Source: Seison nebaliae (taxonomy: Eukaryota). Taken from it: DNA of 64,000 nucleotides. Positions within the stretch are counted from its first letter, which is position 1, and every line of letters starts with the position of its first letter. The position numbers and the translations under genes were made by a program. The notes beneath the pieces are model-generated. The model was not told where the DNA came from and made no database searches. It saw nothing but the letters and a program-made list of their open reading frames with translations. The DNA lies in contig JALJEE010000596.1 in NCBI GenBank assembly GCA_023231475.1, forward strand, positions 1 through 64,000, read 5' to 3'. Positions 928 to 58,293 of this stretch are shown here, piece after piece.

Positions 928-1115
928 CTATGAACAACATACCTGACATTTATTGAAATTAAATTACTAATAGGCAGTTATAATTCTTTATATAACGTTA
1001 TTAATCTGTAAGAACTCGATTTAATTGGCATAATATCAACCAGGTGTCATTGATTTTGTGATGTTCCCTATAAAAAAATTTAAAAATAACATTGGAAAAT
1101 TTAATATTATGAAAT

Positions 1116-4633: not shown

Positions 4634-7441
4634 TTAGAATAAAAGTCGATAATGAATAAAATAATTTAGTTTTGAATTTGCACACAAACCTAATAAGAGA
4701 TGACGAAATGCATCAATATGTCGTCGATCGTTAAACAATTTTAATAAACTTTCTGTATCACAATTCTCTAGGCCATTACTCAAGAGATTGCAAAGGAATG
4801 AGAAGATTTGTGGCGTAGTCGACGAATTCTGTCTATTATTTCGCACTTTCTGATATTTTGAATCTTGAAGTAATTGATAAAATGGAATATTTCCTTCTTG
4901 ACCTTTGCACAACGAGAAAATCGATTCTAATCCATTAACTAATGAATGTTGTTGTTGTTGTTGTTGTGGCGGTGGTGGTGGTTGTGGTTGTGATTGTGAC
5001 GGTAATTGTTGTTGTTGTTGTTGTTGTTGTTGAGAAGAAAATGAATTGTATTTATTTAAATTAATTTGATTATCCGAATTCTCTAAAGTTTCATCGGCCG
5101 GTCCATGAACATCAAAATTATCATCATAATAAGTAATTCCAGAATTATTGAAAATTTGATTTTTATTAATGTTGTTATTGTTGATTGTTGTTGATGGTGA
5201 TGGTTCTGGAATGATGGGAGTTGTACAATGATTTTTTAATGATCGATTAATTGTCGATGAATTGCCGGTGGTGATGGAAGTGAAAGCTTGAATTAATTCT
5301 TCTGGTGAATTAGTGATATTCTTCGTCCATCCATATGCATTATTACCTGGTTTCTGATGACGATGTAATCCTACTTCACAAGGATTCGATATTCCGTCAC
5401 TTGCCGTATGCAATTTGCCATGACAGAATTGGGCGATACAACGCCAATGACACATAGTTTTCGAGAGACGATTAACACGATAATGGAAACCATTATAAAT
5501 GGCGAGTGGTCGTTTTCTTCTTGTTAAGAAGATGCGAACGGTATTATCATTCATCGAATCATCGATAAATGATGCTGATGTGGAACCATCAGTAAGAGTA
5601 TTTAATGATGATTCATTTAATGAGAGATCGGTTCGATTAATTTTCGGTGTCGATTCAGCAATCGGATCGCACAAAATTTTATTGTCATTCTCTTTCGTAT
5701 CGAATGAGATTGGTGTGGAATTACCAGATGTGTTGGCTTGTTTCGCTGTGTATGATTGTTCGGAATGACGACGTTTAATTCCGGAGGAAGAGAGATTCTT
5801 TTCATATTCATCTGATGAATTATAAGTGAGAGAACCGTTCATCGATCGATTATTGGGCATTGTCAATGTATCTTCTTCCTCACTATCATGAACACCCGAA
5901 TCACCTGGCATCGAATGTTCACTAATATTCGTATTCGTTTCCTCATCTACTTCCATCGTCGACGATTTATGATTTACGAAATTTTTCATTTGTTGTTTAT
6001 TTCCAATTATTCGTCCTCTATTCTCACAATTCACAATTCCTTCATCGCAATTCTCTTGTTTTATTATTATCGATCGTTGTTGTTGTTGTTGTTGTTGTTG
6101 TTGAGCTGATTGTGTAAGTAATGATTTCAATTGTTCATTCATCCATTGATATGATTTGTAGTCTTGTTTCTGTAAATTATTCAAAGAAATTTGATTATTT
6201 TGTCCAACATTATTTTTCGAATTAAAAATATTTGAATTATTATTATTGGTATTATTATTATTATTATTATTATTATTTGTTTTTCGATCATATGAATTTT
6301 CTGATTTGACTTTATTTCGATTCTGATTTCCATTCAACACTTTCTCATTCTTCTCTTGACGAAGTGAACTCAAAATATAATTCATTCGAGCTTCCTCCGT
6401 CATCTGACTAGTGATGACTCGATCAACTCGTTCGATAATTTCCTGCTCCTCCTCACCACTCAAATTGAATGCATTCATTCGTTCTGTCAATTTCATGTGG
6501 AGATTGGGAAGGAAATTCTGGAAGAATTGTGAACGATAATAATTCGATAATCGAGCACGTAATACTCGAGTCTCTTCTTGCATTATTTTCGAAATGGTCG
6601 AATCATATTCGACTCGTGTCCGATATTTCATACGACCAGTAGCGGATGTGACAAAACTCGTTTCCACATTATCGATGACAGGTGGATGACTATGATTGTC
6701 GAATGGGACACAATGGAAATCACGTACAACAGCAAAATATCGAGAATGGAATTGTGGTTGGAGAATGTGTGAGGCGGAAGTTTCGCTTCCATTCTTTGTA
6801 TAAATATCTTCTTTATGTGTAGTCAAATTATCATATGGAATAAAATTATATTTCTCCAATAATTGATTTTGCATCTGATTCTTCACTTCATAAGTTATCA
6901 TTTTTCCATGACAATTCAAATGAAGACATCGCCACGAACAATGTTTTCCTGTTTCACGATTAATCCGATATTTATATCCTTGATAAATGGCCATCGGTTT
7001 ACCTTTAGAAGACGGGAAAATGACCAATTCACTAAACAAAGGAAAGTGACTACTCAAATCTAATCGATCTGACGATCCCAATTGCTCCATCACTTCACGT
7101 ACCTTCTTCGCCTCTTTTCTCGTTTTTAATGATTCGAATGATGGATAAACGAATTTATCTAAATTTCCATTTAATCTCAACAAATCCGTCGAAGTTCCTT
7201 CTATTCGACCATTCGACGACTCTTTCATTTCTTCTTCATATTCACAATTCTCCTTATAATTATTATTATTGTTGTTGTTGTTATTATTGTTGTTAATGTT
7301 TTCTATTAACAAATTATTATTATTATTGTTGTTGTTGGTGGTAGTGGCAGTGTTATTGTTGTTGTTGTTAGTTCGTGAACTAGCCATCACATCGAGAATT
7401 TGTTTGATTAATTCTGTTTGTTCTAACGATTCGATTTTCAT
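4634..7441 (-). CDS. Protein with two FLYWCH zinc fingers and poly-Asn/poly-Gln tracts (putative transcription factor)
   Basis: FPSSKGKPMAIYQGYKYRIN..WRCLHLNCHG..HSHPP (~7021-6681) and FLTRRKRPLAIYNGFHYRVN..WRCIAQFCHG..HRH (~5535-5355). Likely ATG at 7441 (MKIESL). A possible extra last exon at 4513-4455 would follow intron 4689-4514 (GTTTGT..polypyrimidine-CAG). Confidence 0.8.
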   Translation of the reverse strand: MKIESLEQTELIKQILDVMASSRTNNNNNNTATTTNNNNNNNNLLIENINNNNNNNNNNNNYKENCEYEEEMKESSNGRIEGTSTDLLRLNGNLDKFVYPSFESLKTRKEAKKVREVMEQLGSSDRLDLSSHFPLFSELVIFPSSKGKPMAIYQGYKYRINRETGKHCSWRCLHLNCHGKMITYEVKNQMQNQLLEKYNFIPYDNLTTHKEDIYTKNGSETSASHILQPQFHSRYFAVVRDFHCVPFDNHSHPPVIDNVETSFVTSATGRMKYRTRVEYDSTISKIMQEETRVLRARLSNYYRSQFFQNFLPNLHMKLTERMNAFNLSGEEEQEIIERVDRVITSQMTEEARMNYILSSLRQEKNEKVLNGNQNRNKVKSENSYDRKTNNNNNNNNNTNNNNSNIFNSKNNVGQNNQISLNNLQKQDYKSYQWMNEQLKSLLTQSAQQQQQQQQQRSIIIKQENCDEGIVNCENRGRIIGNKQQMKNFVNHKSSTMEVDEETNTNISEHSMPGDSGVHDSEEEDTLTMPNNRSMNGSLTYNSSDEYEKNLSSSGIKRRHSEQSYTAKQANTSGNSTPISFDTKENDNKILCDPIAESTPKINRTDLSLNESSLNTLTDGSTSASFIDDSMNDNTVRIFLTRRKRPLAIYNGFHYRVNRLSKTMCHWRCIAQFCHGKLHTASDGISNPCEVGLHRHQKPGNNAYGWTKNITNSPEELIQAFTSITTGNSSTINRSLKNHCTTPIIPEPSPSTTINNNNINKNQIFNNSGITYYDDNFDVHGPADETLENSDNQINLNKYNSFSSQQQQQQQQQLPSQSQPQPPPPPQQQQQQHSLVNGLESIFSLCKGQEGNIPFYQLLQDSKYQKVRNNRQNSSTTPQIFSFLCNLLSNGLENCDTESLLKLFNDRRHIDAFRHLLLGLCANSKLNYFIHYRLLF

Positions 7442-8061
7442 TTTTATTTTAATTCTCACGAATGAATAATATGGGGATAATGAGTGGAAACGATGTGATG
7501 TAATTTCTGATAATTTCAGAATAATCTTCCGAAAATTATTCCGAAATGTGATAGCAATTCTTTTTCTATTGAATTCTATTGAGATGAATCGATAATTATT
7601 AGATTGTAAGATGAACAATGATATATATTAGGGAGAAGAAAAGACGATTGACTGGAGAAAAATAATTTCTTTATAATGACAAATAACTCTATCATTAAAC
7701 TATAACAATTATTCGTAAATCGATCATTAATTGATTGAGAATGCAAGAATTGTCTCATCAATTCCATCACAAATGATTGGAATGGAAGCATAAATATCTC
7801 TAATGGAATCTACTTCTCCTCTAATCATCTTCTACTTAATGTGCAAACGAATGAAAATCTTCTTTTTTCACGCATCATCCCTTCCAACTATTTGTGTGGC
7901 AGATTCTTTTCTGTCCTATGAATTATCAGTATGACTTCTCACTAAATTATTCGATGGTGAAAAAGAAGGAAAATTCACGCTACCACATCGATCAATCAAT
8001 AAAGAGCAAGAATGATCAATGGAAAAACTTTTAAAAGAAAATATCGATAAAAGAACGAGAA

Positions 8062-22588: not shown

Positions 22589-24794
22589 TTAGATCAACTT
22601 ACATGCATCGATATTGTATTGATTGCTCACCATTTGGATTAATCTCGTCGCTAACATCAATTTGTCTTGAGGATTCGAGTCCAATTGATTGATATTATTC
22701 AACAAGATATTCAGTTTCCGTTTCAATTCGTCTGGTTGAAATTCTAATTTCTCATAATTGATCTTGTGAAGATACATCTCCATCTCATTTTCATTTGACT
22801 GGTCATTTTTATTCTGTTCCTGTTGTTCATTTTGTTGTTGCTGTTGTTGTTGTTGTTTGAGAAATGTTTGAAGAAGTAACGTCTTACTATCTAATAGATC
22901 GGCGTCGACATTGTGAGAAGTTTGGGGAGAATCGAGAGACATATTTATCAACGAATTCGATCCATTCGACGATATTTTCCTTTTCATATATTTGTCATTA
23001 TCATTTCCTGATATGATGTCATCGATCGTTGAGAGTTTTCGACGTTTGGAACATTGTTCATCTGATTTCAATGACGAGAGTTCACTATTCTCAACATCGT
23101 CCACTTCTTCGCTGGTCAATTCGCTAGTCGACGTTTGATTTCCATTCGATTGTTTATTGATTGTATCAGGTGTTCGTCGATAATCGGAAATATTTGTTGA
23201 TTTATCATTCGAATTATTCTTCGTTTGTGAATCGTAGATGGCTGATACAATATTCTTCAAATAACTTATGAGATTATTAGAGAGATTTCCTTCGTTATTA
23301 TTCTGATTATTATTAGGAAAATTCAAATTCAATTGATTGGCAATATTTTGAGTGTTTTGTGTGGGAATTGTTTCTCGAGTCGAATCGTTTAATTGTTCGG
23401 AGAAGGTTTTCTCATTTTTCAATAATTGTAATTTTCTAATTATGTCTAACGGATTTACCGATTGTTTCGATTGCTTATTCTGATTTACTAAAATATTCTG
23501 AATGTTCGTCAACGGATCATTGACATTTGAATTATCATAATCATTAGACATCGAGAATTTCGAATCATCATTGTTATTATTATTATTATTATTGATCGAT
23601 CCAATACCAGAATTATTATTATTATTATTGTTATTATTGTTATTGAAAGTCGTGTCGAACGATTGTAAGTTGGAGGAGGAGAAGACTTTTGGTAAAATTG
23701 ATGAAATATTTAAACCGGAATTGTACGAATTTAATTGATTTTGCATCGTCAATAATGATGGTATGAGACTCTTCAGATCATCCAAATTTCCATTATCTGA
23801 ATTATTATTTCCATTCATAATATTATCGTTATTATTGTTATTGTTAGTATTGTCACTTTCCAACTTCCATTTTTCACGTAATGGTTTCCTGCCACGTTTC
23901 TTTCTTGCAGGTTCGTTCCCTAATCGATTGGATGGAGAAGAATTACCGTTATTCGACGATTTTTCTGTACTTTCTTTCTTGGAACTTTTCGGTTTAGCAA
24001 TTCTTAATGGCAGACTACTATTGGGATCGACGGTATAAATAGATTTATTCTTGACACCTTTGAATGAACCATCAGCATCAAATACGACACCTCGAGGTGC
24101 GTGTGGATGTGTATCGTGTAAATTCTCAATTTCTCCATTTGAATTTACTGTCAATCTTCCATGACAAAATCGTACGACGCATACCCAATAAGTTCTTTCT
24201 CCTTGTAACTTCTCTCGACGATATCGATGTTTCTGATAAATTAGATGTTCATTTCCTTTAGTACTCAAAAGGAAAAAATAGTCTCGTCCTTTTGGGAAAT
24301 AAGGATAATTTCTTTGATCAATCGGAAGGAGTGGCGGTAATGTCGTCGAATTATCTTGATGTCGATGTTGAATAATTTTCTTATTTAATTCGATATTTCC
24401 TTTCAATATCTCTTTATGGTTCGCGGGAACTTCTGAATATTTCATATTTTCCGATTCATTTTCACTTTTCAATTTCTCAATTGTCGTCGATGAGATGTCG
24501 TTATCAGAATTATAGAATAATTTCGCCGTTTCTGTCACAACGGGCAAATATTCTCCATAGCCATTCTCATTTGATGGTAAATTTAATGACGAATTCTTCG
24601 TACCATTCTGTTCGACACAATTGTCATTCTGAAAAAGAAAAACAAAATTAATAATTTCTTTTCTCAAAAAATTTTTATTTCAATAAAATTGTTTCATAAT
24701 TTCAATGAGAGTCTCATAAAATTTAATTGATTTTTATTAGACGAACCTTCATTGTAGTATTGTCATTTGATATGTCATTTGCATTTGTCTCCAT
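22589..24794 (-). CDS. FLYWCH zinc-finger protein with AT-hook-like motif, 2 exons (24794-24747, 24628-22589)
   Basis: FLLSTKGNEHLIYQKHRYRREK..TYWVCVVRFCHGRLTV..HPH, followed by ARKKRGRKP, with poly-N/Q tracts. A 16-codon first exon METNANDISNDNTTMK is joined by phase-0 intron 24746-24629 (GTTCGT..CAG). Confidence 0.8.
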
Positions 24795-30492: not shown

Positions 30493-33400
30493 TTAGGAAT
30501 ATGACGTAGAAAAAGATGATGATAAGATATCGAATTCGGTTGTGATTGAAGAAATCGAAATGTTTTTTGGGGAATTTTTTGGTTTTCTGTTCATGAAAAT
30601 CGAAGAAGGAAATGCAGTCATTTCGTCGAATTTGTTGAATGTGTACGAGTATAATTTGGGTTGGTAACGGTTGAAGAAAAGATTCGTATTTAGATCTGTC
30701 CTCCCACCAATTGTTGTTTTCTCTGGAGTTTTTCTCGAATGACAATCGATATCATCCGAGGACGAGAAATGTGTCGTTAACGATGTTAGAGAATGTGAAC
30801 TGACGTTAGATGTAGTTGATGTGAAAGATTGGAAAGAATTGAAATGCTTCATTTCTGTCGGGAATTTGAAGGAATTGAAATTTTATTTGAAATTTTATTT
30901 GAAATTTTTTTATCATAATTAAAAATTAATTCTTTTGTGATGATAATCCATTTGACGTGATGATTAATTGATTCCATATTTGGATTTGAGCGAATAGCAA
31001 TCAACTGGACATGCAGAATAGAAATGAATAAAAGCAAATTAGTTTAAGCATAAGTGGACATGAGAAATTGAGTTAAATTCAGATTAATGGAAATAAAAAT
31101 TAATGGAAAAGAGAAAAATAACCAATTGGTATTTCGGTGCTAGAAATGATTTCATCAATCTTCTTCCGATCTTCTTCATTGATGGCTGCTGAAGATTCTC
31201 CAATTACACTGTTTGTTAATGGGACATAACATTTGGATTTGGTCGATGAAGAATCGCCGATTCGATATCCACTACTCAAATTTGAGCGGGAAGATACAGA
31301 TCGTGCTAATTCGGAATTCGTTCTCGATACAGTTGTCGCTTCTTCAAGTTGTTTCTCTAAACGTTTACATTCGGCGAGAGCACCTTGCAATAACATGGAA
31401 AACGGGATATTTGATGATTGTTGACTACTGATCGTATAGTCACTATAAGGTGAACGAGAACATTGTGTTCGATCTGTTTGACATGATTGTAACGATGTTG
31501 TCTTAGAAATGAGCGAATTGGTATTGGAATCGGAATGAGGTTCAACCAAATTCGATAAAGTTGTATGAGAGACACGTTGGAAATCGACTTGTTTCAATAA
31601 ATTATCTCGTTGAATCGAGGTCAATCGATAATGATCTTATTGAAATTAATAATAATTGAAATAAAAAAAATTGAAGAAAAAAATTAATTTTATAACTTTT
31701 ATTGAGATATCGATTAATTCCTAAGAGAAGTGCATCATGTTTCCATCCGAATAATTTATATTCACTTTTCGGTGGTTTCTTCTCGCTTAACGGCGATTGA
31801 GTATGTTTTAGTAAATGTTCGAACTGTTCGATTGGAATATGTTCCTGCTCTGTAATTTCTCGAATATAATGAGATACGATCAGTCGATACTGAAATTGGA
31901 AAATAATTGAAAATTGTAAAATTATTTTAAAAAAAAACTTTTTGTCTGAAATTCGATGTTGGAGCATAATTCAATTGTAATCTATTGAGAACTGATTGGA
32001 ATTATTAGAAATGAAATGGAAAATATAATGAACGTGATGGATCTTTGAGAATGGCACGTCGAAATAAGGGTAAATGAGATTCATTCTCCACATTTTCAAT
32101 ACAAGAAAGAATCATAAATAAATCGGATATGTCTAAAATTGTCTAAAATTAACGAGATTAAAAATGATATTTTTAGATGAAAAATAAACTTTTAAATCGA
32201 TCGATTGACAATTGGGAACGTTTAATGTTTGTTGTTGAATGTTCAAAAATGATTGATAGGCAATCGAATGAATGAGAATATTTAAAATGAAATTCTTTCG
32301 CTCACAATTCAACACGTCTGAAAATTGGACTAATTTGAGAAGCCAATCGATTGGTAATCGTCTTATCAAGAGAAGTGATCCCATTGTCAGGGCGTCTTGT
32401 TCTGCGAGAAGTTCCGATGAGAATAATTTGAAAATGTCATCGATAAATTCTTTCTCTCTAAATCCATCATCGCCATCGAAATATAATGGAATTACATCAT
32501 TTGTCATTTGACCTTTATTCTCATTATTCCGTTCGAAACGTTCGACTATTAAAAAAGTTTTATAAAATTAAAGTTGGCAAATTATAATATAATTACTAAC
32601 TGGCATCGACTTGATCGAAATCAAATTTTAGAACTTTATCTAATCGTTGCAAATAAATTATGAGTAAGAGAACAATTAATAATTCCGTTTCATTTCCATT
32701 TTTAAATAAATTATAGTCTACAACCAAAAAAATTGAAGGATGAATCGAAACGGGAAGAAATATGAAACAATTTAATTTATCAACATAAATATCTTTTTCC
32801 GTATGGTCTTCATTCGCACCGAGTACCTCGAGTGGCTTTTTCACATCAAATGGGAAAGTTTTCAAAAATGTTTCCAAAATAATTATGAAATGTTTTGGAC
32901 TTAAACTTTGGAGGAAACGTTGTTCTTCTTCAGAAATTAGTAATCTGAAGAAAGCCGGAATTACGTTTAGTTGACTTAATCGATTTTCCGTTTCTTGTTT
33001 ATCTTCCTCGCCGATATTATTTCGGTGCATATTATATGGTTCGATTGAACAAGCGTCTAATAACAACAATTGATTTTCGTGTTGTTCCAAAGCTGATTGC
33101 CATGATGCAGGTAATAGAGAAATTATACGATTGACTAAGCCACTCATTTTTGTCCATTCTTCATTGCGCCAACTGGGAGAAATCATCATATCAAACAAAG
33201 AATAAAATTACGAAAATAAATCATAGAAATGACTTAACTCTTGAGATTGCACGATTAATGCAAGCAATTGACAAGGCGAACCATTATCGATTGATTCGAT
33301 CAAATATTGATTTAATTGATGTGTTAATTTTAAAATTAATGTCGATCCTTCCAAATCCATAACGTCATCAACTAAAATATCATCTAACGGGAAAAAACTT

Positions 33401-36400
33401 AAATAGATAAAAATGAAGAGAAAGTAACTTGTAATTTTAGAATAAATTAATTCATCGAACTTTCTGGGTTTGGTAATCGAACGACTGAATTGATCTAATA
33501 CTAAGCATTTTGCTGCTGGTATTTCTAAGTATAAGACGGCCGAATAAAGTGGAATTAATTGTTCGTTCTTCAATTTAATTGGCAACATATAAAAATAGTC
33601 AGCAATTATTGAAAATATTTTTGCGCCGCCAGGAAATTTTTGTATGCGAACTACTTCTTTCATGTCATTTTCCATTCCGTCATTCTTCTCCGTTTTTCTC
33701 ACTGCTTCTTCAGTTATATCGATCTCTTGTTGGAATAATCGACTGAATTCTTTCAACGGTTTCTTGTGTAAATGAAAAATTTCATTATCAATCTCAATCT
33801 CGATATCTGACCGATCTCCATTACTTACAATAATCTTTTCCTCTAATAAATCTTCTGGTGTCAAGTCACGTGACTTATTTTCAACGATCGTTTTTGTGGC
33901 TGAATGAGAAATCTCTAAATTTAATTCTGTTGGTATTTCTTCTAAATCTTTCGGAGATATCACTGTTGAAGTTGATCGATAACAAGGCGAATTAGTTTCA
34001 CTCTGATTCGTTAGGCAACTGGCCGTACCAGACGTACTTGGTGATTTTGTGCCATTATCTTTTGGAATCTGTTGAAAATTGGTTTCGATATCGATTAACT
34101 GATTTTTATCGATACTCTCCATCGACAATTCGGATAATATTCCCAAACTTTCGTTTTCCTCTTAAATGAGAGAAGAATAAAAAGATTTTTTATTGTTCTC
34201 CCAATGGAGGAAAAGGCGGAGAAGAAGAAACTATAAAAACCGTTCGATATTTCCGACTGTTGTGACAACGACTTTATTAATATTGGAGATTGCTCTTCCT
34301 TATTTGGCGAGATATATTTATCAATACGAATATTCTGCGGTTCCTGATAACGGCGTATGAGATGAATGAAAGAGAAATATAATTTATATTAAAAATAAGT
34401 TTGGGGGAGAATTTAGATTGTTTTTGGGTTAGAAGTGTTGATCTTTTCGATGAGAGAAAGAAAAGAAGAATTATTTCCTAAAAGAAATGTTATGCTATGT
34501 AAAGAATTCATAAGAATTAATTGTGTGATCGTTCAACACGAAAGTTTTATACTATCTACATGTGGTACATATGAATGGACGAGATGCGACTGCATCTTGC
34601 CCGTGTAAGAGAACTATAGACGATTAATTAATAGCCGAATGTTACGAATCTTTTTAAATTCTTCTCACTTCTCATTTACATGAATAACAAGTTAATGTTT
34701 TGATTTTGAGAAAGATGGTAAATTTATTGAGCACTAATCAGCTTCTATTCATGGATAAGTTAGAAGAATTTACCGTCAAGTTCCTTGAAAACAATTCGAT
34801 GGACGAGAGAAAAATTCGTTTTTTCCAAAAAAGTTTTTTAAAGTTAATGAAAATGAGTTAATGGAAATATATTTGGGAGAACGTAATGGAGAATAAAGTT
34901 GAGATTTGTAGCAATTTGTGAAAGCGAAAGATAATTTGGAAATAGAAAAAATAATTTTTGAGAATATTTTCTATCCGCTCCAACTAGTTTTACATAGATA
35001 GAAAAATGAAAAATTAATGGAAGATATGAGACAGAATATACACCAGTGGCATGTAGGAAATGTAAGTAGAAGGATGTTTTTTTTCGTGAAAGTTATTCGG
35101 GTACATGTTATTCAGCTAAGATTGAACATGTATACATACAAATCACAATACTATGTAGATATGATATCATTCATTTAGAATATTGTGATGATGGCAACGA
35201 CATTGACACTAGAATAATAGATGAGGAAAAGGTAGAGGAATATCGTTTTAGAAGAACAAGAAAAATTATTATCTCATGAAAATTATTCTTATAAATAATA
35301 ATAAAAATTGACAATCAAATAGATTTCTCCTTTTTACAACTTCATCGACAACGTTCCAAAGTTCGAAGGGAATATGCACTTACAGATATTATATAAGTGG
35401 AAGTTAACTGATCATTTGTCATTCTATTTAGTCCAATATGATGAATAAATATGAATAATTCTTTGGGAAAATCATCAACACATTTTATTGATTGGTGATC
35501 GACGGAATCACTATCATATCACATCCAAACACAAAATATATATTTCTCATTCTAATATTAATCATTATTTTTCTATCAATCAATCATTTCCGTTCTTTTT
35601 TCCCATTATTCAGATCAATAAAAAAATTACTTTACTAACATGAGCTTCATTCGATTCCATCGAATTTCCTTTCAAAAACGAATTGTCATTCGACCATGAA
35701 TCGTTTAACTGTTTCGGATATTCCACCACCTGACTCACATGGGAAGCATATTTGTCCTCTCCATTCATTTGACGTAAACAATCATAACTTTTACTGTGTA
35801 GTGGCATCTCTTCTCGTGAATAATGATGATGAGATTGATTGTCGTTATCAGTCTCTTCTAATTTGGATTCTAACCGAACATTTCTCGAGGAATAAGGTCG
35901 ATTCGAACTCGACGAACGATCACGTCTCGGAGAGATTGAACAGAACGTCTTCCATACCGAACCATAAACCGAATGATTTTGCTCGTTCATATTTCTTGTC
36001 AACGGACGACTACGAGATGATTCGACAACTCGTTTCGTCTGATTATAATTGACGGATGGAATGTCTATTAATTTTTGTTTGTGAATTTTTGGAGCGGAAA
36101 ATAATTTCACGGACGATGAATCTGGTTTGACTTGATAGCGATTTAGAGAAGAAGATGAAGATGAACTTCGGCCGTAATTCGAGACGGATTCCAACGATTT
36201 ATTTTCAAAACTTTTCGATGGTAAACGATTAATATTCTTTCCATTTGTCTTATGTGGGAACATGGTCAATTGTAATCGACGTCTCCATCTCCAACTCCAG
36301 GAGGGAAGCATCCAAGCTGGACTGATTCCATCAATTTCATTATTCTGATTATATGTGATATCTTCGAAATCGATCATATTTTTATGATTTCTTCTTGGTA

Positions 36401-38984
36401 CGTTTTCGTCTTTCTGATTTATATCAACTGAACGACTTCGAGGCTCTACTAATTGTTGTATTTGTTGAGGGGAACTCCTATTTTTTTCTTCACGTTCCGT
36501 TAAATAACTATTTGGAGATGGTAGGAATCTTTTGTTGAAATTGAACGTCGAATTGACGATCATATTCTCGTTTTGCTCGTTTCGATCATTCGACCAATTT
36601 GTTGGTTTTTCCTGATAGGAACAGCATTCCGTATCATCGATTTGTAATTTATTCATTTCATAATTCCTCATAATTGAACAATCAATATTGTTATTCCGAT
36701 TCTTTAATATTCCCTTACGTGATTGAGGTGGAGTGTTAAATACGACTCTGGGACGAGACATATCGTTTTTGTTTTCGAAATACTTCGTGGAGAATAATAG
36801 TCCCGCTGTATTGCTATACCTAAAATAAAAGAAGAGATGGATGAGAATGATGAATGATTACTGGAAGAAGAAAAAAACGGAATTTCTTTTCTTTTAATAA
36901 AAACGTAAAATTCAATCGGTAAATATGAGAAGAAAAAATAGAAAAGACGATGGGACATTTGAAAATGATTCAAATAATTTATTTAAGTATTATTTAAAGA
37001 AAGATAAATTTTAATTAATTCCAAATTTATTGGATTAAATAAAGGTCGGTGGATAATTTAATACTGGAATTCTATTGGAACTCAAATGTTAATGACGATT
37101 GACATTGGTAATGACTTCAATAAAGTTGCTTCATCTTTTAAGAATCGATGTGAAGTTACATGAAATGAATTGTTAAATTTTAATCTATTCTCAAATTCAT
37201 CATAAACGCCTTAAAGGTTGGAGAAATGAACTAATGACAAATAGTTTAATTTCTGTCATGCATCATCTTATCAAGGTGAAATGGAACGTAGAATTGTTGG
37301 CTAATAAAAAAGACGAGAAAAAGATTAAGGTGAAAAGGAACATGATTCTTCTCGAAAACGAGTAAGAATAATAACGATCATTGACATTATTATTATATGA
37401 CCATTGGCATTGTCGATTTATGAGGTTCGAACGAAATGAAGAAGAGGAGAAGAAATTTAACGATAAATTTTAAGGAATTCATCATCATGACTCGATCAAA
37501 TTTCAACTTTCTTTCCATCTGTTTATTAGTGGGATTATCGGTGATGGAAATTGCAATATGGGGTGTAGTTATGTCTATGTTTATCTAACGTCGTTGGTGT
37601 TTGTTGCGGCAACAAGAGCGGCAATTTTCTTAACAAAACTAAATCATAACGAAGGCTACAACACACCATATATGTCGATAAGAACGATATATTTGCATTC
37701 AGTTGATTAATTCACATCGGATGAAAGACATTGGATCTGCTAAATACTCCCCGTTGTGTTGAGTTTGGTTCATTTTATTTTTTGTCATTCATAAGCCAAA
37801 CAGCAATTCAAGGATTTCTTTTGTAAGTAACAGGAACCATGGAACTGCCAGATAATTATAACGTGGGATAATATTGATATAAAGTCGACGAACAAAAAAA
37901 ATCGTCGAATAACTTGTGATAATTATGCTTTCTTCCTTCCAATTGATAAAATAACTATGATGGGAATGATGATGATGATGAAATCATTTCCGTAATTCAT
38001 TCTAACTCTATTCTATTCCAAATAGAGTTTTTCAATTCAATATTTTACTTACAATTTTCTTCATCAATCTCGTCAATATGGTTCATCAAATTATCTTCAT
38101 CAGAACATACCAACAAACAATCTTTATGAGGAGATGAAACTAAAAACGAAATGAGGAGACCGATCGTCTACCAATATCATAGTAATGATAATACATAATA
38201 GCGACTGCCCTCGCTTGATTGTTGTTTGACTGCGACTGAAATTAATACAATTAAATCATTCCTGATAACTTGTTTTATTTTCGATATGAAACAATAATAA
38301 TAGTAATAGTAACGATGATTAAGTGATTGAGAGAAAGAGGAAATTATACGATGGAATAATTCATGTACTACTCGCTCCACAAATCTTTTAATTAATTGAA
38401 TTTATATTATAATATATTCTTTTTATCTTCCACAATAAACATATCTTGATATAAGTCAGATATCTGATATTTTCCATCTCATTACAATAATAAAAAAACG
38501 AATATTTTATTTCATTTTATTAACCTTCTACCAATTGGCGATGTTAATCTTTCAAATGTTCGCAAATCGTCAACCGTTTTAATAAACATTGATTTCCCAT
38601 CAGAATCAACTGGATTACTAAAAAAGAAATTGATATTTCTTATTCGAAATATTCTCACACTAACTCATCCGACACATCTCGGAAATTATTGAGGGAATAT
38701 GATGTAGGTACGAATTGATCGAAATCATCACTATGGTTTTCTTCATTCTCTTCGATAAACAATTCACAATTGTTTTCGTTCATTATTTGAAGTTCACCTA
38801 ATAATTCAACAAGATAAATTCAAACTTTATTTATTTGAATTTTAAAAAAATTGTAGAAACCTTTTTCTCGAATTTTTAAGAAATCATCATTGGAATAAGT
38901 CAATTGATTTTGTTTAAATGGATATAGATAATTGTCGATGATGTGTGATTTTTTGAAACGCTTAATGAATCCTTTCTTTCCCAT
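30493..38984 (-). CDS. Large BTB + NPH3-like domain protein, 15 predicted exons
   Basis: Introns 38860-38798, 38664-38618, 38524-36820, 35639-34344, 34240-34161, 33428-33384, 33238-33173, 32768-32718, 32600-32546, 32189-32143, 32033-31992, 31938-31890, 31696-31636 and 31122-30855 are all GTT..AG and in phase. BTB: SDIEIEIDNEIFHLHKKPL..FPGGAKIFSIIADYFY..LYSAVLYLEI. NPH3-like: LIVSHYIREIT..HDALLLGINRYLNKNHYRLTSIQRDNLLKQVDFQRVS..IPFSMLLQGALAECKRL. The link to exons upstream of 36820 is tentative. Confidence 0.7.
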
Positions 38985-41320: not shown

Positions 41321-42974
41321 TCAGGGAGTTTTCTTATATTTCTTTAATTTTTCATTCCATTGATAAACTAATAGTCCACCTTCAGTCTGATTAGCCACCA
41401 ATAGGAAATTTTCAAACACACCAATAGTTCCCACCTGGAAACCACAGCCGATACTCTGAATCACTTGGATTGGCATCGAACGTCCATAGATGAATATTCG
41501 TTTCTGTGTTGCAAATATGAGATGAGATTTAGTGGCTTCGAACGCAACAATTTTAGTGCGTTCTGGTTGAGCGAATCTCATTTCTTGGATTACCCAACTA
41601 TTTTCCGCTTTCTCTTCTTTTTCCTTTTCTTCCTTATTTGTATTCGACTTTGTATTACGACTAAATCGATATGTTCGATTGGCATCATCAATTATCAGAT
41701 AATGAATGGACTTATCATTCGTCGGATAGGATAATCGTCTAATGGATTTGGGTGAGCAATTGGTTGGACTCATATCTACACATTTGACACTTTGACCATT
41801 CGTATAATTTAGCCACTGAACCCGGTTATTATACTTGTCAGCAACCAGAAGAACGTCACTCGTTAGGAATGGAGCAATTGATGCAGCCATATAATATTCA
41901 CCGAATTGTGCACCAATTTTATTTGCCATCTTTCTAACTAAATTCCCGTTCAACTCATGAATATAAATTCCAGGTTGTTTGTTGTCACATTCACAAATGA
42001 AAAGTAAATTCTGATAAATTGTCATATCATGAATGTCTGAGTAACAGGTTTTGATCCAATCTGAATCGAACAAATATTTCCGTTTCTTTCCTTCAGAAAT
42101 TTTCCAACAAAAAACTTTCGTCGATGTTCCCGTAATTATTCCTTTGTTGAACATACAAATATATTTCCATTTCATCTTATTCACTTCCACGTCGTCAAAT
42201 ATTATCCTTCTCCGATTCACCAATAGTTGTCCCACATTATTCTTCTCATCTTCAGATATTTCACTCGTATTTTTATTCTTTATTTTCTCTACACTCTTCA
42301 TCAAATGATTAGCGACATCTTCCATTTCCACCTTAAACTTTTCCGGCAATATAGGAATATCCGTTTTCAAAAGGAAATTTGTGGAATTTTTAATTTCTTC
42401 AGTCAACAAATTGATAATTCGATGAAACTGTTTCAAGATCTCTTCAGCATTGTTATCTCCCTCCAATTTCATTTCATCCTTTTTATTGAAAAATGTATAA
42501 AAGGCTTTCTGTTTCACATTCAACATCTGCGTTTGCACTCGCTCCAAATCATTTTTCACCGTCATCGCCGTTTTCCTAATTCGAAAAATAGTTTTAAACA
42601 AATTTTAAAAAATGTCTTAATTGAAACTCATATTTGATACATTTACCGAGATCTTCACTTTGTTTATTAAATAATTTATTGATTGTACATAACGCGTGAT
42701 TATAATTCTTTCGGAAATCCTCCAACACACTGTTCCTCTTTGCTAAACGAACTTTTAGATTTGATAATAATTTTATTTATCTAAATAACATTGAAATAAG
42801 AAGAAAACTTTGAGCTTCATTCACTTTTGAATCGGTCAATATCTTCGAAATTAATTGTTGTTGTTTTGTCGCTGCCGTTTCTAGATGATAATAGAAATCT
42901 TGAATTGTTTCAAAAGTTCCCGCGCAGTGATCGCAATGATGTTCCACTGAAGATGTGATGATTGTGTTATCCAT
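41321..42974 (-). CDS. Protein with N-terminal CxxC/His zinc-finger-like motif, coiled coil and C-terminal NHL-like beta-propeller; 3 exons (42974-42809, 42751-42628, 42575-41321)
   Basis: CDHCAGTFETIQDFYYH, a helical middle region, and blade-like repeats LLFICECDN..IYIHELNG and VLLVADKYNNRVQWL. Introns 42808-42752 (GTTTTC..AAAAG) and 42627-42576 (GTTTCA..TAG). Confidence 0.65.
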
Positions 42975-44843: not shown

Positions 44844-45637
44844 AGATGGAAAATGTATTAGAAATTTGAAGGTTATGAACCTTTGTCAATTATTAGGGAA
44901 GATGGTGAATGATATTAAAGAGGAATGTATAATAACTATAATAATGTCAACAATTCATTCATGCTTAGTCCGAACGAATCGTAGATGAAGAATCATTATC
45001 AATTATCTTATCATATATTTTTCTGTTCTTCTTATTAATTTATTGAATGACGACAATGATTTAGGTTATCATTCCTCCCTAAATCGTAGATAAAAATGTC
45101 TGGTAGTAGAAGGGAAATTGGTAGTCAGTGAAAATTAAATGAGGAATGTTTGATTAAAAAGTAAAAGCCAGACAAGATATTTCGACGATATGTACGGAGA
45201 GATATGTCGTAGATACCTTTGAAATGATAGAAGTTCCCTCCATTTTATCGAAAAAGGTAGAAATGATTGATATTCAATATAATATTATGCTAATGTTCCA
45301 ATAAGAGAACATCAGAAGATATATGTGACAGATGATTCATATCTCAAAAATGTCTTCATAAAAAAGACTCGTCTGTTCAAAGAGAGATTTTCACAATTTC
45401 GAACAAGCATCGGAAGAAGTCAAAAAATTGTGTGATTGAGAAATATCTCTCTATTTTCACTTAACTATAATTCCACATAAAAAGTCTAACTAATATTTAA
45501 GTGATGACAAATATAATTTAACGTCAATATCGTCATCAAATGAAATAACGTATGAGGAGGATTTCTTATTCGGTCTTATCAAAATTTCATTTAAGTTCAT
45601 TCCTCTAACAATTAAAGTTTCTCTTCTCCAAATTATC

Positions 45638-47167
45638 ATGAGTGGACATAAATTCTCTTACAATAATTCTCGTCGTTTAACATCGAATAATAAATCGCAA
45701 GATGAACATCGTCTTCATAGTCAGACGCCGTCAGCTAACAATTTCTCGAGATATTCCCCAATCTGGAAAACATCACCAGGAGCTGAAGTATTTGCTTTGA
45801 GAGGAAACGATTCAATGTCGTCTATATCTCAGGATGAGAATTCGATTGATTCCAAATACAAAAGTCGATATAAACCGAATAAATACCTATCGAAACGATT
45901 GAGCGATACAAGTGTCACTGGAATTACATTCACCATTTATGACAATGAAGATAATAAGGAGCGTATTATCAATCATGATTATCTCGCTTCACATGTGAAA
46001 GATGCGAAATTGTATCTTCCGAAAATTTGTTTAAGTGACAATGAAAGTTCAACGAATAATAAACGATCGAGTAAGAAAAAGTCAAATCAGAAGATTGAAC
46101 AAAATAATGGAAAAAATAGTTCACAAAAAGTCTTCGTTTATTCTCCATCTTCATCGATCACCGAGAAAAAGAAACCGGTAGTACAATGTAAAATTGATAA
46201 GAATCTACTCCAAATCACAGAAGATTTATATATCGGCTCGTTGTCGAGTTTGAGGAATGAGAAGAATTTGTGTAATAGAAATATCGAATTCTTCATCGAT
46301 TTCACTCATTTGCCGCCAGATTTGTTAAAGAAGCAAAGTCATTTCGGTTTTATTCCGTGTAATTGTAATCTCACTCCAAGAAATTCGAACGAGTCGTTCG
46401 ATAAGAAATCACATTCCAAATGTACGATGGCAATTGATCTGACATCTACAGAACATCTCTCGAAATTTTATTTCGATAACGGTTCTGTTCCACTTCACAA
46501 CGAAATAATTTATGATAAACTAATTTACGAACCTGTTGATATGGATAAGAGGAAGAATTCGAATAATAAACATGGAAGTAATACAACTGATTTATTTGTG
46601 GCTTCTGATTATAAATCATCTCCTCCAGCTTTCACTTATTCGGACATTTATCAGGAATTGGTATCGATGTTCGAATCGATCAATGATTTTATTGGAAAGG
46701 CGAAAAAACAGGATAAATCAGTTTTGATTTATTTAGTCAATAATCCGAAAACAGGAGAATCTACAAATCTTTATGAACAAAGATTATATGGTGAGACATT
46801 GACGAGTAAATATCGAGATATTAATCGAATCTCATCAATCATATTAGATGCCACTATCATCCAATATTTAATGTTGGGTGAACGATTGAAACAAGAGGAA
46901 GCGATCGATAAATATTTGAGGAAGAAACAATCGTCATGTCAAACGAATAATGATACAACTTCAAACAACAACAACAACAACAAGAATAATAATATTGATA
47001 ATGGAATAAATCCAACGACAAATTTTAAATCGAAATGTTCCAGATCATTATCACGATCAACCACCACAACATCGACAACGACATCATCCATCAATTGTAC
47101 GGTGGTAATTGATCAGATGTTACAGAAATATTTATCCTCTATCGAAATGCAAATGTTACGGAGATAA
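45638..47167 (+). CDS. Dual-specificity-phosphatase-fold protein lacking the catalytic motif (pseudophosphatase)
   Basis: DSP elements QITEDLYIGSLSSLRNEKNLCNRNIEFFID, MFESINDFIGKAKKQDKSVLIY and ATIIQYLM..LKQEEAI are present. HCxxGxxR is replaced by YLVNNPK plus an insertion. Confidence 0.7.
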   Translation: MSGHKFSYNNSRRLTSNNKSQDEHRLHSQTPSANNFSRYSPIWKTSPGAEVFALRGNDSMSSISQDENSIDSKYKSRYKPNKYLSKRLSDTSVTGITFTIYDNEDNKERIINHDYLASHVKDAKLYLPKICLSDNESSTNNKRSSKKKSNQKIEQNNGKNSSQKVFVYSPSSSITEKKKPVVQCKIDKNLLQITEDLYIGSLSSLRNEKNLCNRNIEFFIDFTHLPPDLLKKQSHFGFIPCNCNLTPRNSNESFDKKSHSKCTMAIDLTSTEHLSKFYFDNGSVPLHNEIIYDKLIYEPVDMDKRKNSNNKHGSNTTDLFVASDYKSSPPAFTYSDIYQELVSMFESINDFIGKAKKQDKSVLIYLVNNPKTGESTNLYEQRLYGETLTSKYRDINRISSIILDATIIQYLMLGERLKQEEAIDKYLRKKQSSCQTNNDTTSNNNNNNKNNNIDNGINPTTNFKSKCSRSLSRSTTTTSTTTSSINCTVVIDQMLQKYLSSIEMQMLRR

Positions 47168-52557: not shown

Positions 52558-53847
52558 TTACTTCTTCTTGTACGATTTACGAATCCTTCCACTCTTCACT
52601 TTTTTGATGTCAGGTGTCTTCGGTTTGATCTTTGTTCGTGTTGACGTTGTTATGGTGAAGAATGAATCAATTCGACCTTGTTGTACTGAATTCTTCGCTT
52701 TCCTTAATTTGATGCAACCATTCCGAATTCGATCTTCACTAAATCCTTTCTCTTTCACCATATACTCCACCAACTCCTCTTCATTCGGCTCTAACCATTT
52801 CAGTTGTTCGTCCAGTTCCTTCGCCGACGTTACCGGATGCTCCACAAACAGTTGTCTCGCTTTCTCGTATTGCCAATCGTCAGGAACGCCATATTTCTTC
52901 TTATCTAAATTTTTAATAATCGTTTCGATATCCGAATATTTCTTGATCAATTCAACCGCTCGTTTTGGACCAATACCTCGAATCGATTCACAATAATCAC
53001 ATCCCAATAATATACAGAGATCAATAAACTTTTCTTTATTGGAAATGAACAGAATTTTGAGAAAATTAAACTTGTGTCGAAGTGAAATTTAGATCTTGTA
53101 AAATTTTCTGATAATCGAATTGTTGAATATTCATTTTTCTGAAAGGAAAAAATTTATTTTTTTAATTTTAATTTTTTTTAAAAATTTTTCAAAAAATTGA
53201 ACTTTGCTTCACTCGCATTGAGATGACGAAGGAGAACGGGCGTTCCAAACGTCAAACAATCCATATCTTCAGTACCCGCACCATAAACTTCACCTCCTTT
53301 CACTAATTCAGCACATTGTGCTTCTGCTTCACAAGGAGCCTTGATAAAGAAGTTTTTAAATAAATTAAATGAAGAAATTTCGAACGATTACGAAAGGAAT
53401 TCCCATCAATTTCAATAAATTTTGACATTCCTCCACATGAACTTTCGTCACTTTTACTAATCGTTTACTAAATTTATCGATCATTTCTACATCACCTTTC
53501 GTTTTCGCTTCTGTTAATTCTTTCTCCGCTTCACTTCTCTTCTCAGCTCGTTTCTTCAATTCTAACGATTTCATTTCTGGTGCTTTCCCATCAAATACAT
53601 AAACTGGTTTAATTCCGTTATCTGCCAATCGAATTGTCCGATAGAATAAACCGATTAAATGAGATGTCGTTTCTCCATCAGTACCAGTCAAATTCGATCC
53701 GTCTTGTCTAACAGCAACGAGAAATTGATAAATAGACATTGACGCATCGATAGCAATTCTTCGACCGAAATATGAATTCAATTTATTCTCACGAACAGCA
53801 TTCGGAGCCATATCACACAAAAGTTGAGCGAGACCTTTAATTCCCAT
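52558..53847 (-). CDS. FEN1: Flap endonuclease 1; 4 exons (53847-53386, 53339-53203, 53138-53072, 53028-52558)
   Basis: [65 protein letters not shown] and PIP box QGRIDSFF. Introns 53385-53340, 53202-53139 and 53071-53029 are fixed by conserved protein sequence. Confidence 0.97.
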
Positions 53848-53872
53848 GATAATGAATGAAATGAAATAAACT

Positions 53873-53913
53873 CTGAAGAATAGAAAGAAAAAATAAATGA
53901 AATTATATTTAAA
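53873..53913 (-). other. Unpaired 3' splice acceptor (U-rich tract + TTCTTCAG) in the 66-nt DTWD2-FEN1 spacer; candidate trans-splice site
   Basis: The minus strand after the DTWD2 stop reads tttaaatataatttcatttatttttttctttctattcttcAG, then 25 nt to the FEN1 ATG. There is no GT between the stop and the AG. Confidence 0.4.
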
Positions 53914-54825: not shown

Positions 54826-55342
54826 TTAAATAACTTCAAGAAATTTCTTGAGAGAATAAGATTTTAGTCAAAACAAAATTTCTGATATTTAAGCCAAAAA
54901 TTTGAAAAAGAATATTTTTCATCGACCATCGTCAAAAAATGGAAAAAAAATTTTTCATTATCTACCTATAAAAATATAAAAGACAAACTAACGAGTAAAA
55001 GTTTTTGAAAGATATAGTTCAAGACAGAAAACCCATCAAAATGAATACTTTTAATAAATTTATTGTAGAAATTTACCTACCAATTACTTACTTACAATTG
55101 TTAAATTATTTCCAATGAATAGACTATAAATTTTTCGGAATAGAATTATAATAATCAATTGAAATGATTGAGCTTAAAATTTAAACACAGAAAATTTCGG
55201 TAATTTCTAAAATATCAAATTATTCAATAGAAGTTGAATTAAAAGAGAAATGAAAATTACAAATTTTTAATTTTGTACTTTAAAAAAGAAAAAATTAATT
55301 CTTTTATCATTCGTTTCTTTCTTATCTTCTACATTTTAAGTA

Positions 55343-58293
55343 ATGGCTTTCAATTGGGTATATGATCGTATGAAATCCATGATTTCCATGGATGATACAA
55401 GAAAACGGTCATCGTCAGATGGTTTAAGTTCAGAAGACACTTCCAATTGGACCTTCGATCATACTACCAATTTACATCAGAATAAAAGAATGAGAAAAAT
55501 GATTGAACAAAATGAGAATGTCGTTTTCACAAAAGAACAATCGATATTTAATCGAAAGGATGGAAAATTCATGATCGACGGTGAAGTTCCATCATTCAAT
55601 TTTAATAATTCAACTCTCGATCAGAAAACGTCAACATTTATTGATTCGCCACGAAGATTTAACGTTGTTGGTAGACGACAAATTCCATCAAGTGAATTGA
55701 AAGAACGAGTGAAGCAATCAGATTCTTCACTTTCATTCGAAAACGGTCATTTTAAAATTGATGAGAAAAAAAAAATATCAAAACCATCATTCAATGAATT
55801 CTGGGAGAATAAAAATATGATAAGAAAATTCGCCCACAAACCAATTAATCTTCCCAAACCCAAAAACATTTCGAGCGAAACGAAAATTGTATTTAATGAA
55901 ATTTTGGTGGATGATGGAAAATTGATAGATGACGAAATAATTATAGAGAAACCAATCAGGAAGAAACGTCCGTTAGATGATGACAGTGAACATAAAACAT
56001 TCAAAAATAGTGGTTGTCAAACCATCAATGAATCGACCACAACAGAATCATCAATCCGTCGATCGCCAAATAAGAAGAAATTGAAAAAGAATAAAATGTT
56101 CGATTGGATCGATAATAAGACGAGAGAGAATCTTCTTCGATTGAAAAAGTTAAATGAGAAGAATTTGGATATATTTTGGAAGAAAATGGAAGAGAAAAAA
56201 TCCACTGAAGAAAAAGATTTACCCAAATCTGATGATCTCGTTAAATTCAATCAAATTTCAGAGAATTCTCTCAAAAAGAAAAACGTTCGACATTTATTTC
56301 AATATTTCTCTTAATCATTTTCTTTTTTAGAACGACGAAGTTGATAACAAAGTTAAAAAAGCGAATGAAATAGAAAAAGAAAAAAAAGTTTTTTTTTAAA
56401 ATAATTTTTAAAATTAAGTTTTTTTCCAGACAAATTCCACATCTCTTCCATCACTCTCGGAATTGTTTGGAAAGAAAGACGGTTGGGAATGTAGTTCGTG
56501 TCTCATATTCAACAAAGAATCCGCCACTTCTTGCGCTTCATGTGAAACGAAAAGAGAAACGGTTTTAAATTTTATTTGAGGAAAATTAATTAACTTTCTT
56601 TCATCAGAAATCTCCAGTAAAAGATTTGAAAAGAAAAGGAAAGAATGATGAAGAATTTATTGATATAATTCATTTGGAAGAACCGAAAGTGAATGAAAAG
56701 CCAAAGAAAGTGAATGATTCATCGAAAATTCAATTTGGAAATGTGAGTAAATCGCCATCAGTAAATTTCACGAAATTATTCGAAACTTCTTCCAATAAAT
56801 CGTTGAATGATATGAAAGAGAATAATTCGATGAATGAGTTCGACGATTCCGGTAACGATAATTTGGGATCGTTGAAAAAAAGAGTTTCTTTCAATCTGAA
56901 TGCGAATACTGTGAAGATTATTAGCGACGAGAAGACCCAGAAATCGAAATTAACAATTGTGTCAAATGGACGAGATGATAATTCTCAAAAATTATATGGA
57001 AATTCTACGACTTCATCGTCGTCTTTATTTCTGTTCACTCCTTCAAATTCTATTAATGCCACTTCTGAACAAACATTATCAAATACTAGTAACAATTTTC
57101 AATTGAAAACATCAGAGAATGAAGAGAAAAAAGGATTATTCACATTTAAAATGAACAATACTCCTATCGATCAGATACCTCTCACGAAAACAACGACGGA
57201 ATCACAACCGATGAAAATTTCATTATTTGGAGATCTGTTGAAAAGGAATGACACATCTAAAGATTCGAAAGAGCAACAAAAGACAATTGACAATCCGAAA
57301 TCAGTTGTTGATACTGTTTTTCGTAATACCGGTTTGACACAACCTCCACCACTTTTTGGTGAATTGTTCAAAAGTCAAAATTCCACAACTACACCATCGA
57401 ACGGAGGAAATACGATATTCAAATTTTCTGGTGGTGATAATTCGAAAAAATTATTCAATTTTACTGGAGATTCCAATTCTGCCACCACAATAAATGGTGG
57501 AACATCATCATTATTTTCATCAATATCTTCAACAGGACAATCATCATTATTTCCCCCAACACAATCATCAAATCAATCGACTATATTTCCGTCGATAAAA
57601 TCATCAAATACAACGATGTTATTTGCTCCAACAATATCATCATCATCATCGTCATTAGGTCAATTACCTAAATTTGGACAAAGTACTCCATCAGATAAAT
57701 CGACATTATTTTCATCCGTATTGTCTGGTGGTCCGTCATCATTATTTTCATCAACATTTACTACTACTTCTTCGTTGATGTTCCCTCCAACAGCAACCAC
57801 ATCTCAACCATCTTTATTCTCATCGATATCAATCTCTACAAAGTCATCAATATTTCCATCATCAACCATCACTCAAGCATCATTATTTCCATCAGCATCA
57901 ACCACAGCTCATTCACTCTTTCCTCCAACCAAATCATCTGGTCAATCGTCGTTGTTTGGACAAAGTACATCATCAGGTCAATCGTTATTTAATTTCAAAT
58001 TTCAAACAGATTCGGAAACGTCCAAAACGTCGTCTTTCTCTTTATTTTCAAAATCATCCACCGAAACATCGAATTCGACCAATACAACAAATACGATTTT
58101 CTCAGGATTCTCATCAGCTGGTGGTTTCTCGTCGCCTTTTGCCGCTAATACTCCGAATCTCGACCAGAATCCAAATAATTCTCCTTTTCCTTCGATCGCT
58201 AATGCTGCTAATTTCAGCACTCCACAAATGGGAAATGTTCAATCGAATATGTTCAATCCGAGAAGTACGAAGAGACGAAACCGGAAATTTTAA
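55343..58293 (+). CDS. Nup153-like FG nucleoporin with a RanBP2-type zinc finger; 4 exons (55343-56284, 56331-56387, 56430-56561, 56608-58293)
   Basis: Exon 3 encodes WECSSCLIFNKESATSCASCETKR. The C-terminal half is S/T-rich with SLF/FG/FxF repeats and ends in a basic tail RSTKRRNRKF. Introns 56285-56330, 56388-56429 and 56562-56607 are all phase 0, GTT..AG. Confidence 0.7.

Follow-up and report, generated by a model that had tools for sequence, protein, structure and literature searches.

The window analysed here, a stretch of 64,000 nucleotides (nt) of Seison nebaliae DNA (contig JALJEE010000596.1, positions 1 to 64,000), carries on its minus strand the gene SNEBB_001175, whose 1416 amino acid (aa) product is annotated as "hypothetical". 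Most likely the protein is a member of an animal family in which a BTB domain is followed by an NPH3-type region and a coiled coil, and the gene was inherited vertically within animals. It is assigned to the animal BTB-NPH3 branch and not to the plant NRL family proper; among the members of this broad invertebrate branch that were seen, it is the most diverged. A first-pass annotation of the window, made without database searches, had proposed a BTB and NPH3-like protein in an animal genome. This reading stands by way of animal profiles and animal homologues, but a direct match to the Pfam NPH3 family is missing. The peptides that it quoted all lie on the minus strand in the order given, and are joined by short GT..AG introns.

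Papers from 2005 to 2026 call NPH3 plant-specific. The animal branch contradicts that description, as the domain also occurs in many animals. Since broad metazoan orthologues were found, as the first-pass annotation had allowed for, the gene itself is no longer novel, and the novelty shifts from the Seison gene to the animal family. The surprise is limited, in that relatives are already present in databases under automatic NPH3 labels. The plant literature that was searched is silent on the animal branch. No papers describing animal NPH3 proteins were found in a search that left most subscription journals and the supplementary gene-transfer tables of rotifer genome papers outside its range; bdelloid genes may be listed in these tables. 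Compact animal members offer a natural outgroup in the search for functional residues of NPH3, a domain without a solved structure in the PDB searches made.

Domains of the protein and their relation to NPH3

Animal profiles were constructed from 26 named animal members, with Seison left out, and scores were compared with those of 1000 local shuffles used as decoys. The BTB region of the Seison protein scores 59.1 bits with the animal profile (best decoy 6.2) and 45.1 bits with the plant NRL profile (best decoy 5.9). With a post-BTB profile that excludes the BTB domain, the post-BTB part of the protein scores 32.3 bits, a score reached by none of the 1000 decoys (best 6.0). The animal homologues in turn match the Pfam NPH3 family: nine of the 16 scanned pass its cut-off and three more match below it, and the Adineta and Ptychodera members also pass. 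The post-BTB model of the hemichordate Ptychodera is all-helical, with a predicted local distance difference test score (pLDDT) of 93.5, and aligns to plant NPH3 models with a template modelling (TM) score of 0.72 over 309 residues. Thus the predicted NPH3-type character of the Seison protein holds through its animal homologues and is one step removed, since Seison matches the animal profile, and animal members match Pfam NPH3 and the plant models.

A phmmer search of 1.84 billion representatives gave 20 matches besides the protein itself at E≤1e-3 (best 1.5e-8), all through the BTB domain, and five of these pass Pfam NPH3. The named matches are the bdelloids Adineta and Didymodactylos, the hemichordate Ptychodera and three plant NRLs, and every one is NRL-type. 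In the Atlas, the top match for the Seison core is a mostly rotifer cluster (BTB 89%, NPH3 60%; score 0.90, 171 shared features), and the plant NRL cluster that ranks third (0.82) is taken as a lead.

The AlphaFold model of the Seison core has a mean pLDDT of 73 and is confident in the BTB domain (83-96), the C-terminal half of the NPH3-type region and the last helix. The inserts are modelled poorly. That C-terminal half (exons 14-15, 31889-31547) is the best-conserved piece of the NPH3-type region, with a pLDDT of 73-94 over core residues 531-630. A Ser/Thr-rich insert of about 40 aa separates the NPH3 part from the Pro-led helix, and the C-terminal long helix, a predicted coiled coil (core 677-704), has a pLDDT of 83-94. 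Between the BTB domain and the matched NPH3 part, confidence is mixed and falls below 50 in poorly modelled linkers at core 113-143, 229-239 and 311-385.

The same domain order, an NRL-type BTB, the NPH3 C-terminal half and one or two intron positions are common to Seison and to invertebrate proteins that include Adineta vaga UJR07792.1, Ptychodera flava XP_070540054.1, Crassostrea virginica XP_022344525 ("root phototropism protein 2-like") and a Mya arenaria "DOT3-like protein". The Pro-led helix with the animal Ala-Leu-x-x-Cys motif is likewise that of the invertebrate members. However, identity to these proteins is at most 24% over aligned columns, and Seison differs from them in a predicted N-terminal extension of 634 aa, in several inserts and in having no Pfam NPH3 score. 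The plant NRL family (NPH3, RPT2, NPY/MAB4, NRL5, At5g48800, At5g48130) resembles Seison in the succession of BTB, NPH3-type helical region and long helix, but is a separate clade with a different motif after the conserved Pro. In addition, the C-terminal Arg-x-Ser site described for some NRLs as a phosphorylation and 14-3-3 motif (in the accessible part of PMC8531357), and confined to a subset of plant NRLs, is absent from both possible Seison endings. The Arabidopsis NRL genes number over 30, compared with the single Seison protein that surfaced in the searches made.

Several observations weigh against the assignment. Pfam finds no NPH3 (PF03000) in the exons or in the full protein, and even the BTB domain (PF00651) scores 16.3 bits (E 0.012), below the cut-off of 20.5. 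The plant-only post-BTB profile (25 plant members) gives 5.6 bits, barely above the decoy maximum of 4.4. Of the 32 columns common to at least 80% of both animals and plants, Seison keeps 20 and has changed 12. Word-seeded searches from Seison returned the protein alone, with no shorter relatives among 7997 candidates, just as a homologue search among 962 candidates had returned SNEBB_001175 as its sole hit. The AlphaFold model of Seison used an alignment of the homologues themselves and does not count as independent evidence. Finally, in the tree described below the Seison branch is very long (2.76) and its placement is without support, and the free tree does not set Seison with the rotifers but joins it to the plant branch at 61/86.

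The long branch, the changed conserved columns and the several inserts would also be expected of a copy that is decaying and no longer functional. This is very improbable, however, as the frame is open over 16 exons with canonical splice sites, and motifs are retained at both ends of the fold.

An accidental likeness to NPH3 in an ordinary BTB-BACK protein must also be considered. BTB-BACK adaptors of CUL3 (KLHL11, KLHL3, KBTBD2) likewise have an N-terminal BTB followed by helices, and their BACK domain bears a weak likeness to the NPH3 C-terminal half. The Schistosoma member matches Pfam BACK over this half (E 7.5e-4), the Ptychodera model aligns to KLHL11 over the same part (Z 7.3, root-mean-square deviation 4.1, 125 residues), and BACK clusters appear low in the Atlas list. 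However, a Z of 7.3 is within noise for helical folds, the named phmmer matches are all NRL-type, and no BACK match is found in Seison or in 15 of the 16 other members. The Pfam check proposed in the first-pass annotation left Seison without an NPH3 match and equally without a BACK match. The two architectures also differ. BACK directly follows BTB in the BTB-BACK adaptors, while the weak BACK-like signal in the relatives of Seison is at the far end of the NPH3 region, and the hemichordate model has about 190 additional helical residues separating the BACK-like unit from BTB. Furthermore, BTB-NPH3 proteins have NRL-specific BTB motifs and no Kelch or other substrate domain. Accidental likeness is therefore considered very improbable. 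As a lead, the Schistosoma match and the KLHL11 alignment, both weak, suggest that the NPH3 C-terminal half may be a distant BACK-like unit, which would fit a CUL3-adaptor ancestry.

Structure searches added little. Foldseek with the Seison model returned mostly BTB domains at E about 0.01 and nothing at E≤0.001, and with the hemichordate post-BTB model it returned generic and designed helical repeats only. A wide structural search, made with the hemichordate model only, gave nothing above helical noise. A PDB sequence search with SNEBB_001175 found nothing, and PDB searches with the family profiles gave, among the rows listed, only BTB domains and two designed proteins.

Descent of the Seison gene

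Two introns of the Seison gene have counterparts in other animals. They were compared with 27 metagenome loci, 13 of which have the His-Asp motif in the gene, L008/L009 and L011/L012 being near-copies; the comparison introns were read from splice signals, not transcripts, and unnamed loci were labelled by likeness to named proteins. Intron 13 lies in phase 0, eight codons before a conserved Tyr, and an AG acceptor at this codon is present in six of the 11 loci that could be compared at this site, all six bdelloid-type. Intron 14 (phase 1) lies 14 codons beyond the His in the His-Asp motif, and in ten of the 13 loci with this motif (seven bdelloid-type, two bivalve-type, one other animal) a GT donor follows the first base of codon 15, counted from the His, at precisely the Seison position. 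The other three are two loci that lack introns at the sites read, and are perhaps transcripts, and one Xenia-like locus. In addition, among 31 genomic open reading frames (ORFs) that run off after the motif (8 full-length rows were left out of this count), 30 carry Gly, Ser or Cys at that codon 15, fitting an N^GT split. It should be noted that the donor at the shared intron is GTT in the seven bdelloid-type loci (L002, L006-L009, L011, L012), and GTA or GTG in the three non-rotifer loci. GTT donors may point to an altered 5′ splice-site consensus in these rotifers.

An unrooted tree was computed from 44 proteins over 430 columns, with 13 vascular-plant rows and no algae or bryophytes. The plants form one clade (100/99) with no animal inside, and a long internal branch separates the plant and animal groups. 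Constraining Seison with the rotifers is not rejected (p 0.32), whereas constraining it with either basal plant group is rejected (approximately unbiased [AU] test, p=0.00016 in both cases). This tree places the protein outside the plant clade, but does not group it freely with the rotifers. At 22 columns diagnostic of animals versus plants, Seison has the animal residue at nine, the plant residue at two and neither at 11. Vertical descent of the Seison gene within animals is well supported by the shared introns, the rejected nesting within plants and these diagnostic residues.

Acquisition of the gene by Seison or its near ancestors from a plant or alga, which the first-pass annotation had raised as an old horizontal transfer, is hardly conceivable and is discarded. 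The position of Seison beside the plant branch in the free tree is in its favour. However, the two intron positions shared with other animals, the rejected plant nesting and the excess of animal diagnostic residues contradict it, and animal profiles outscore plant profiles in both the BTB and post-BTB regions. The other possibility raised there, an ancient and patchily retained family, fits the findings.

Range, origin and possible function of the family

A profile search with the family found 423 proteins (the 7996 best candidates were scored), and the range given here is that of the best 120, many of them unnamed. Among the matches listed, basal animals are represented by Oscarella (sponge) and Xenia (cnidarian). 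The other named animals are Ptychodera and Glandiceps (hemichordates), Capitella and Owenia (annelids), Lineus and Tubulanus (nemerteans), many bivalves and gastropods, Paragonimus and Schistosoma (flatworms), and Brachionus and Adineta (rotifers). Thus invertebrate homologues from sponge to hemichordates are indeed in databases, as the first-pass annotation had suspected, some under automatic names such as "root phototropism protein 2-like", "DOT3-like" and "At5g48800-like". All other named rows in the best 120 are land plants; ecdysozoan, chordate, fungal and protist members are not named among them, which does not prove that they are absent.

The hemichordate members and the Xenia-like ones have in common a C-terminal domain of about 100 aa (P0018 and P0031, residues 446-558; P0091-P0095, P0098; E 1e-12 to 3e-6), which has no Pfam family at cut-off and is matched in no other protein collected. 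Brachionus and similar unnamed members (P0035, P0007, P0008, P0002) have 4-6 copies of a short repeat in the NPH3-region linker. Diverged members are kept by the parasitic flukes Paragonimus and Schistosoma (P0105, P0106, P0110), and no vertebrate member is among the matches listed.

The tree is silent on how the family came to be present in both plants and animals, because it has no root and no algae. We lean slightly towards a BTB-NPH3 protein that arose before plants and animals diverged and later disappeared from fungi, most protists, ecdysozoans and chordates. Plants and animals are separated by the long internal branch and neither is nested in the sampled clade of the other, members are present in a sponge and a cnidarian, and a C-terminal domain is common to the hemichordate and cnidarian members. 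However, many losses are required, and no named fungal or protist member is in the best 120 of 423 or in the Atlas rows.

A single, very ancient horizontal transfer between the stem lineages of streptophytes and animals is a tentative alternative that falls well short of an even chance. Among the matches listed, the family is confined to land plants and animals, and two surveys, one covering 17 eukaryote genomes and one covering 78, reported NPH3 from plants alone (PMC1257465, PMC4327156). The same surveys overlooked the animal members, however, which makes their absences weak. Also against such a transfer, there is no outgroup and hence no direction, and exact-pattern scans gave no viral or prokaryotic carrier, with relatives in none of 110 viral stretches and none of 46 prokaryote genomes. 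A stronger form of this proposal combines one ancient cross-kingdom transfer with retention of the same biochemistry in animals from sponges to hemichordates, and with loss confined to the lineages of the usual model animals. It is doubtful; the biochemistry would be that of a CUL3 adaptor, possibly with a non-canonical GTPase said to be absent from metazoans.

The role of the animal BTB-NPH3 protein may be that of a self-associating scaffold and CUL3 ubiquitin-ligase adaptor, a proposal modelled on the plant family and on BTB proteins at large and given about an even chance. In plants a CRL3-NPH3 complex (PMC13075204) and self-interaction of NRLs (PMC11313873) have been reported. The BTB domain would pair with that of a second copy and dock CUL3. 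The all-helical NPH3 solenoid, with a BACK-like unit at its end, would serve as spacer and binding surface. The coiled coil and disordered ends would select a membrane or trafficking partner for ubiquitination or clustering. No light-sensing role via phototropin would be expected; animals are not known to have phototropin.

The animal proteins could instead be trafficking-associated GTPases or Rab/SNARE-binding scaffolds, like plant NRL5, and not CUL3 adaptors. The accessible part of PMC11313873 reports that NRL5 and six other NRLs have a BTB-independent GTPase activity, which it regards as a core feature of the family, but does not define catalytic residues. The animal post-BTB fold does match the plant fold. 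However, just six of the 32 columns that animals and plants have in common fall after Seison residue 900, and the all-helical hemichordate model found no nucleotide-binding fold in the top rows of the structure searches. On balance this role is unlikely, although the adaptor or scaffold and GTPase readings are not mutually exclusive.

Gene model and neighbouring genes

The public protein and a spliced model made from the raw DNA, which gave an open frame, have identical core junctions. SNEBB_001175 differs from that model in three additional upstream exons, two additional small in-frame introns and a short last exon. The first-pass annotation had placed the gene at 30493..34160, which does not agree with the annotated gene, running from 38984 to 30964. 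At the 5′ end, an in-frame Met543 at 34122 is an alternative to the annotated start, and 36761 is a further candidate start position. The N-terminal extension, of which 67% are polar or charged residues, has no Pfam family at cut-off, and the BTB domain is where the other animal members start, unlike Seison. At the 3′ end, the last exon of the first-pass annotation (30854-30493) is possible. However, 179 (first-order) or 430 (second-order) of 2000 random sequences contain a frame as long as its 129 codons, so the alternative end at 30493 is unsupported because its frame length is not above chance. The annotated C-terminus ends in Lys-Tyr-Gly and resembles those of bdelloid members, which is a weak sign in its favour. 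Contigs from two studies span a 9-kb stretch at even depth with zero letter differences, and one of them may be the source of the window; over the locus the contigs are DNA-like, without splice joints.

The Seison BTB-NPH3-type gene is a host gene and not contamination. It lies among ordinary animal genes (two FLYWCH, a second BTB, Ras-family GTPases, FEN1, DTW, LMW-PTP, LITAF and CLUAP1), its guanine-plus-cytosine content is level with that of the window, and GTT introns are also found in FEN1 and CLUAP1. The first-pass annotation had cited host-style GTT introns against contamination, and this argument holds, as every intron donor examined in the window starts with GTT: all 15 introns of this gene are GTT..AG, as are, read by eye, three in FEN1 and several in CLUAP1.

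Table 1. Positions of SNEBB_001175 features and of other genes and frames in the window.
Feature	Position	Strand	Basis or remark
Whole gene SNEBB_001175 (P0001), 16 exons, 15 introns	30964..38984	-	Public protein maps letter for letter onto the window
Predicted N-terminal extension of about 634 aa, low-complexity and polar (exon 1 to the start of exon 7)	33847..38984	-	
BTB/POZ domain, NRL type, P0001 643-749	33502..33822	-	Insert of about 15 aa in middle loop
Strongly diverged helical region linking BTB to the matched NPH3 part (exons 7-11)	32442..33501	-	Model helices
NPH3-type helical region, P0001 1031-1262	31547..32441	-	25.6-bit domain match to animal post-BTB profile; alignment with animals and plants
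Intron 13, phase 0	31890..31938	-	Same position in bdelloid-type loci
Intron 14, phase 1	31636..31696	-	Position common to bdelloid-type, bivalve-type and one other animal locus
Pro-led helix into predicted coiled coil, animal-type motif, P0001 1307-1344	31301..31414	-	6.9-bit second domain; alignment
Short last exon, annotated end	30964..31004	-	Mapping of public protein
Possible alternative last exon, Ser/Thr-rich	30493..30854	-	In frame via GTT..AG intron; end given by first-pass annotation
Pro-Ile-Pro repeat frame	1113-2296	+	About 15 repeats
Second BTB gene	2986-3956	-	Over two frames
FLYWCH zinc-finger genes (two)	4634-7627 and 22589-24679	-	Long, single-frame, with Asn/Gln runs
Long frame	41321-42604	-	No Pfam match at E 0.01
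Long frame	45494-47167	+	No Pfam match at E 0.01
FEN1	52558-53913		Introns read
Long frame	55340-58293	+	No Pfam match at E 0.01
CLUAP1	61774-63400		Introns read

Among the remaining frames of the window, the three long ones without a Pfam match may, by likeness, be repeat-propeller, phosphatase-like and Phe/Ser-rich nucleoporin-like proteins. The Pro-Ile-Pro repeat protein, for which no Pfam family was found, has a signal-peptide-like start ahead of its repeats and is possibly a secreted or cuticle protein.

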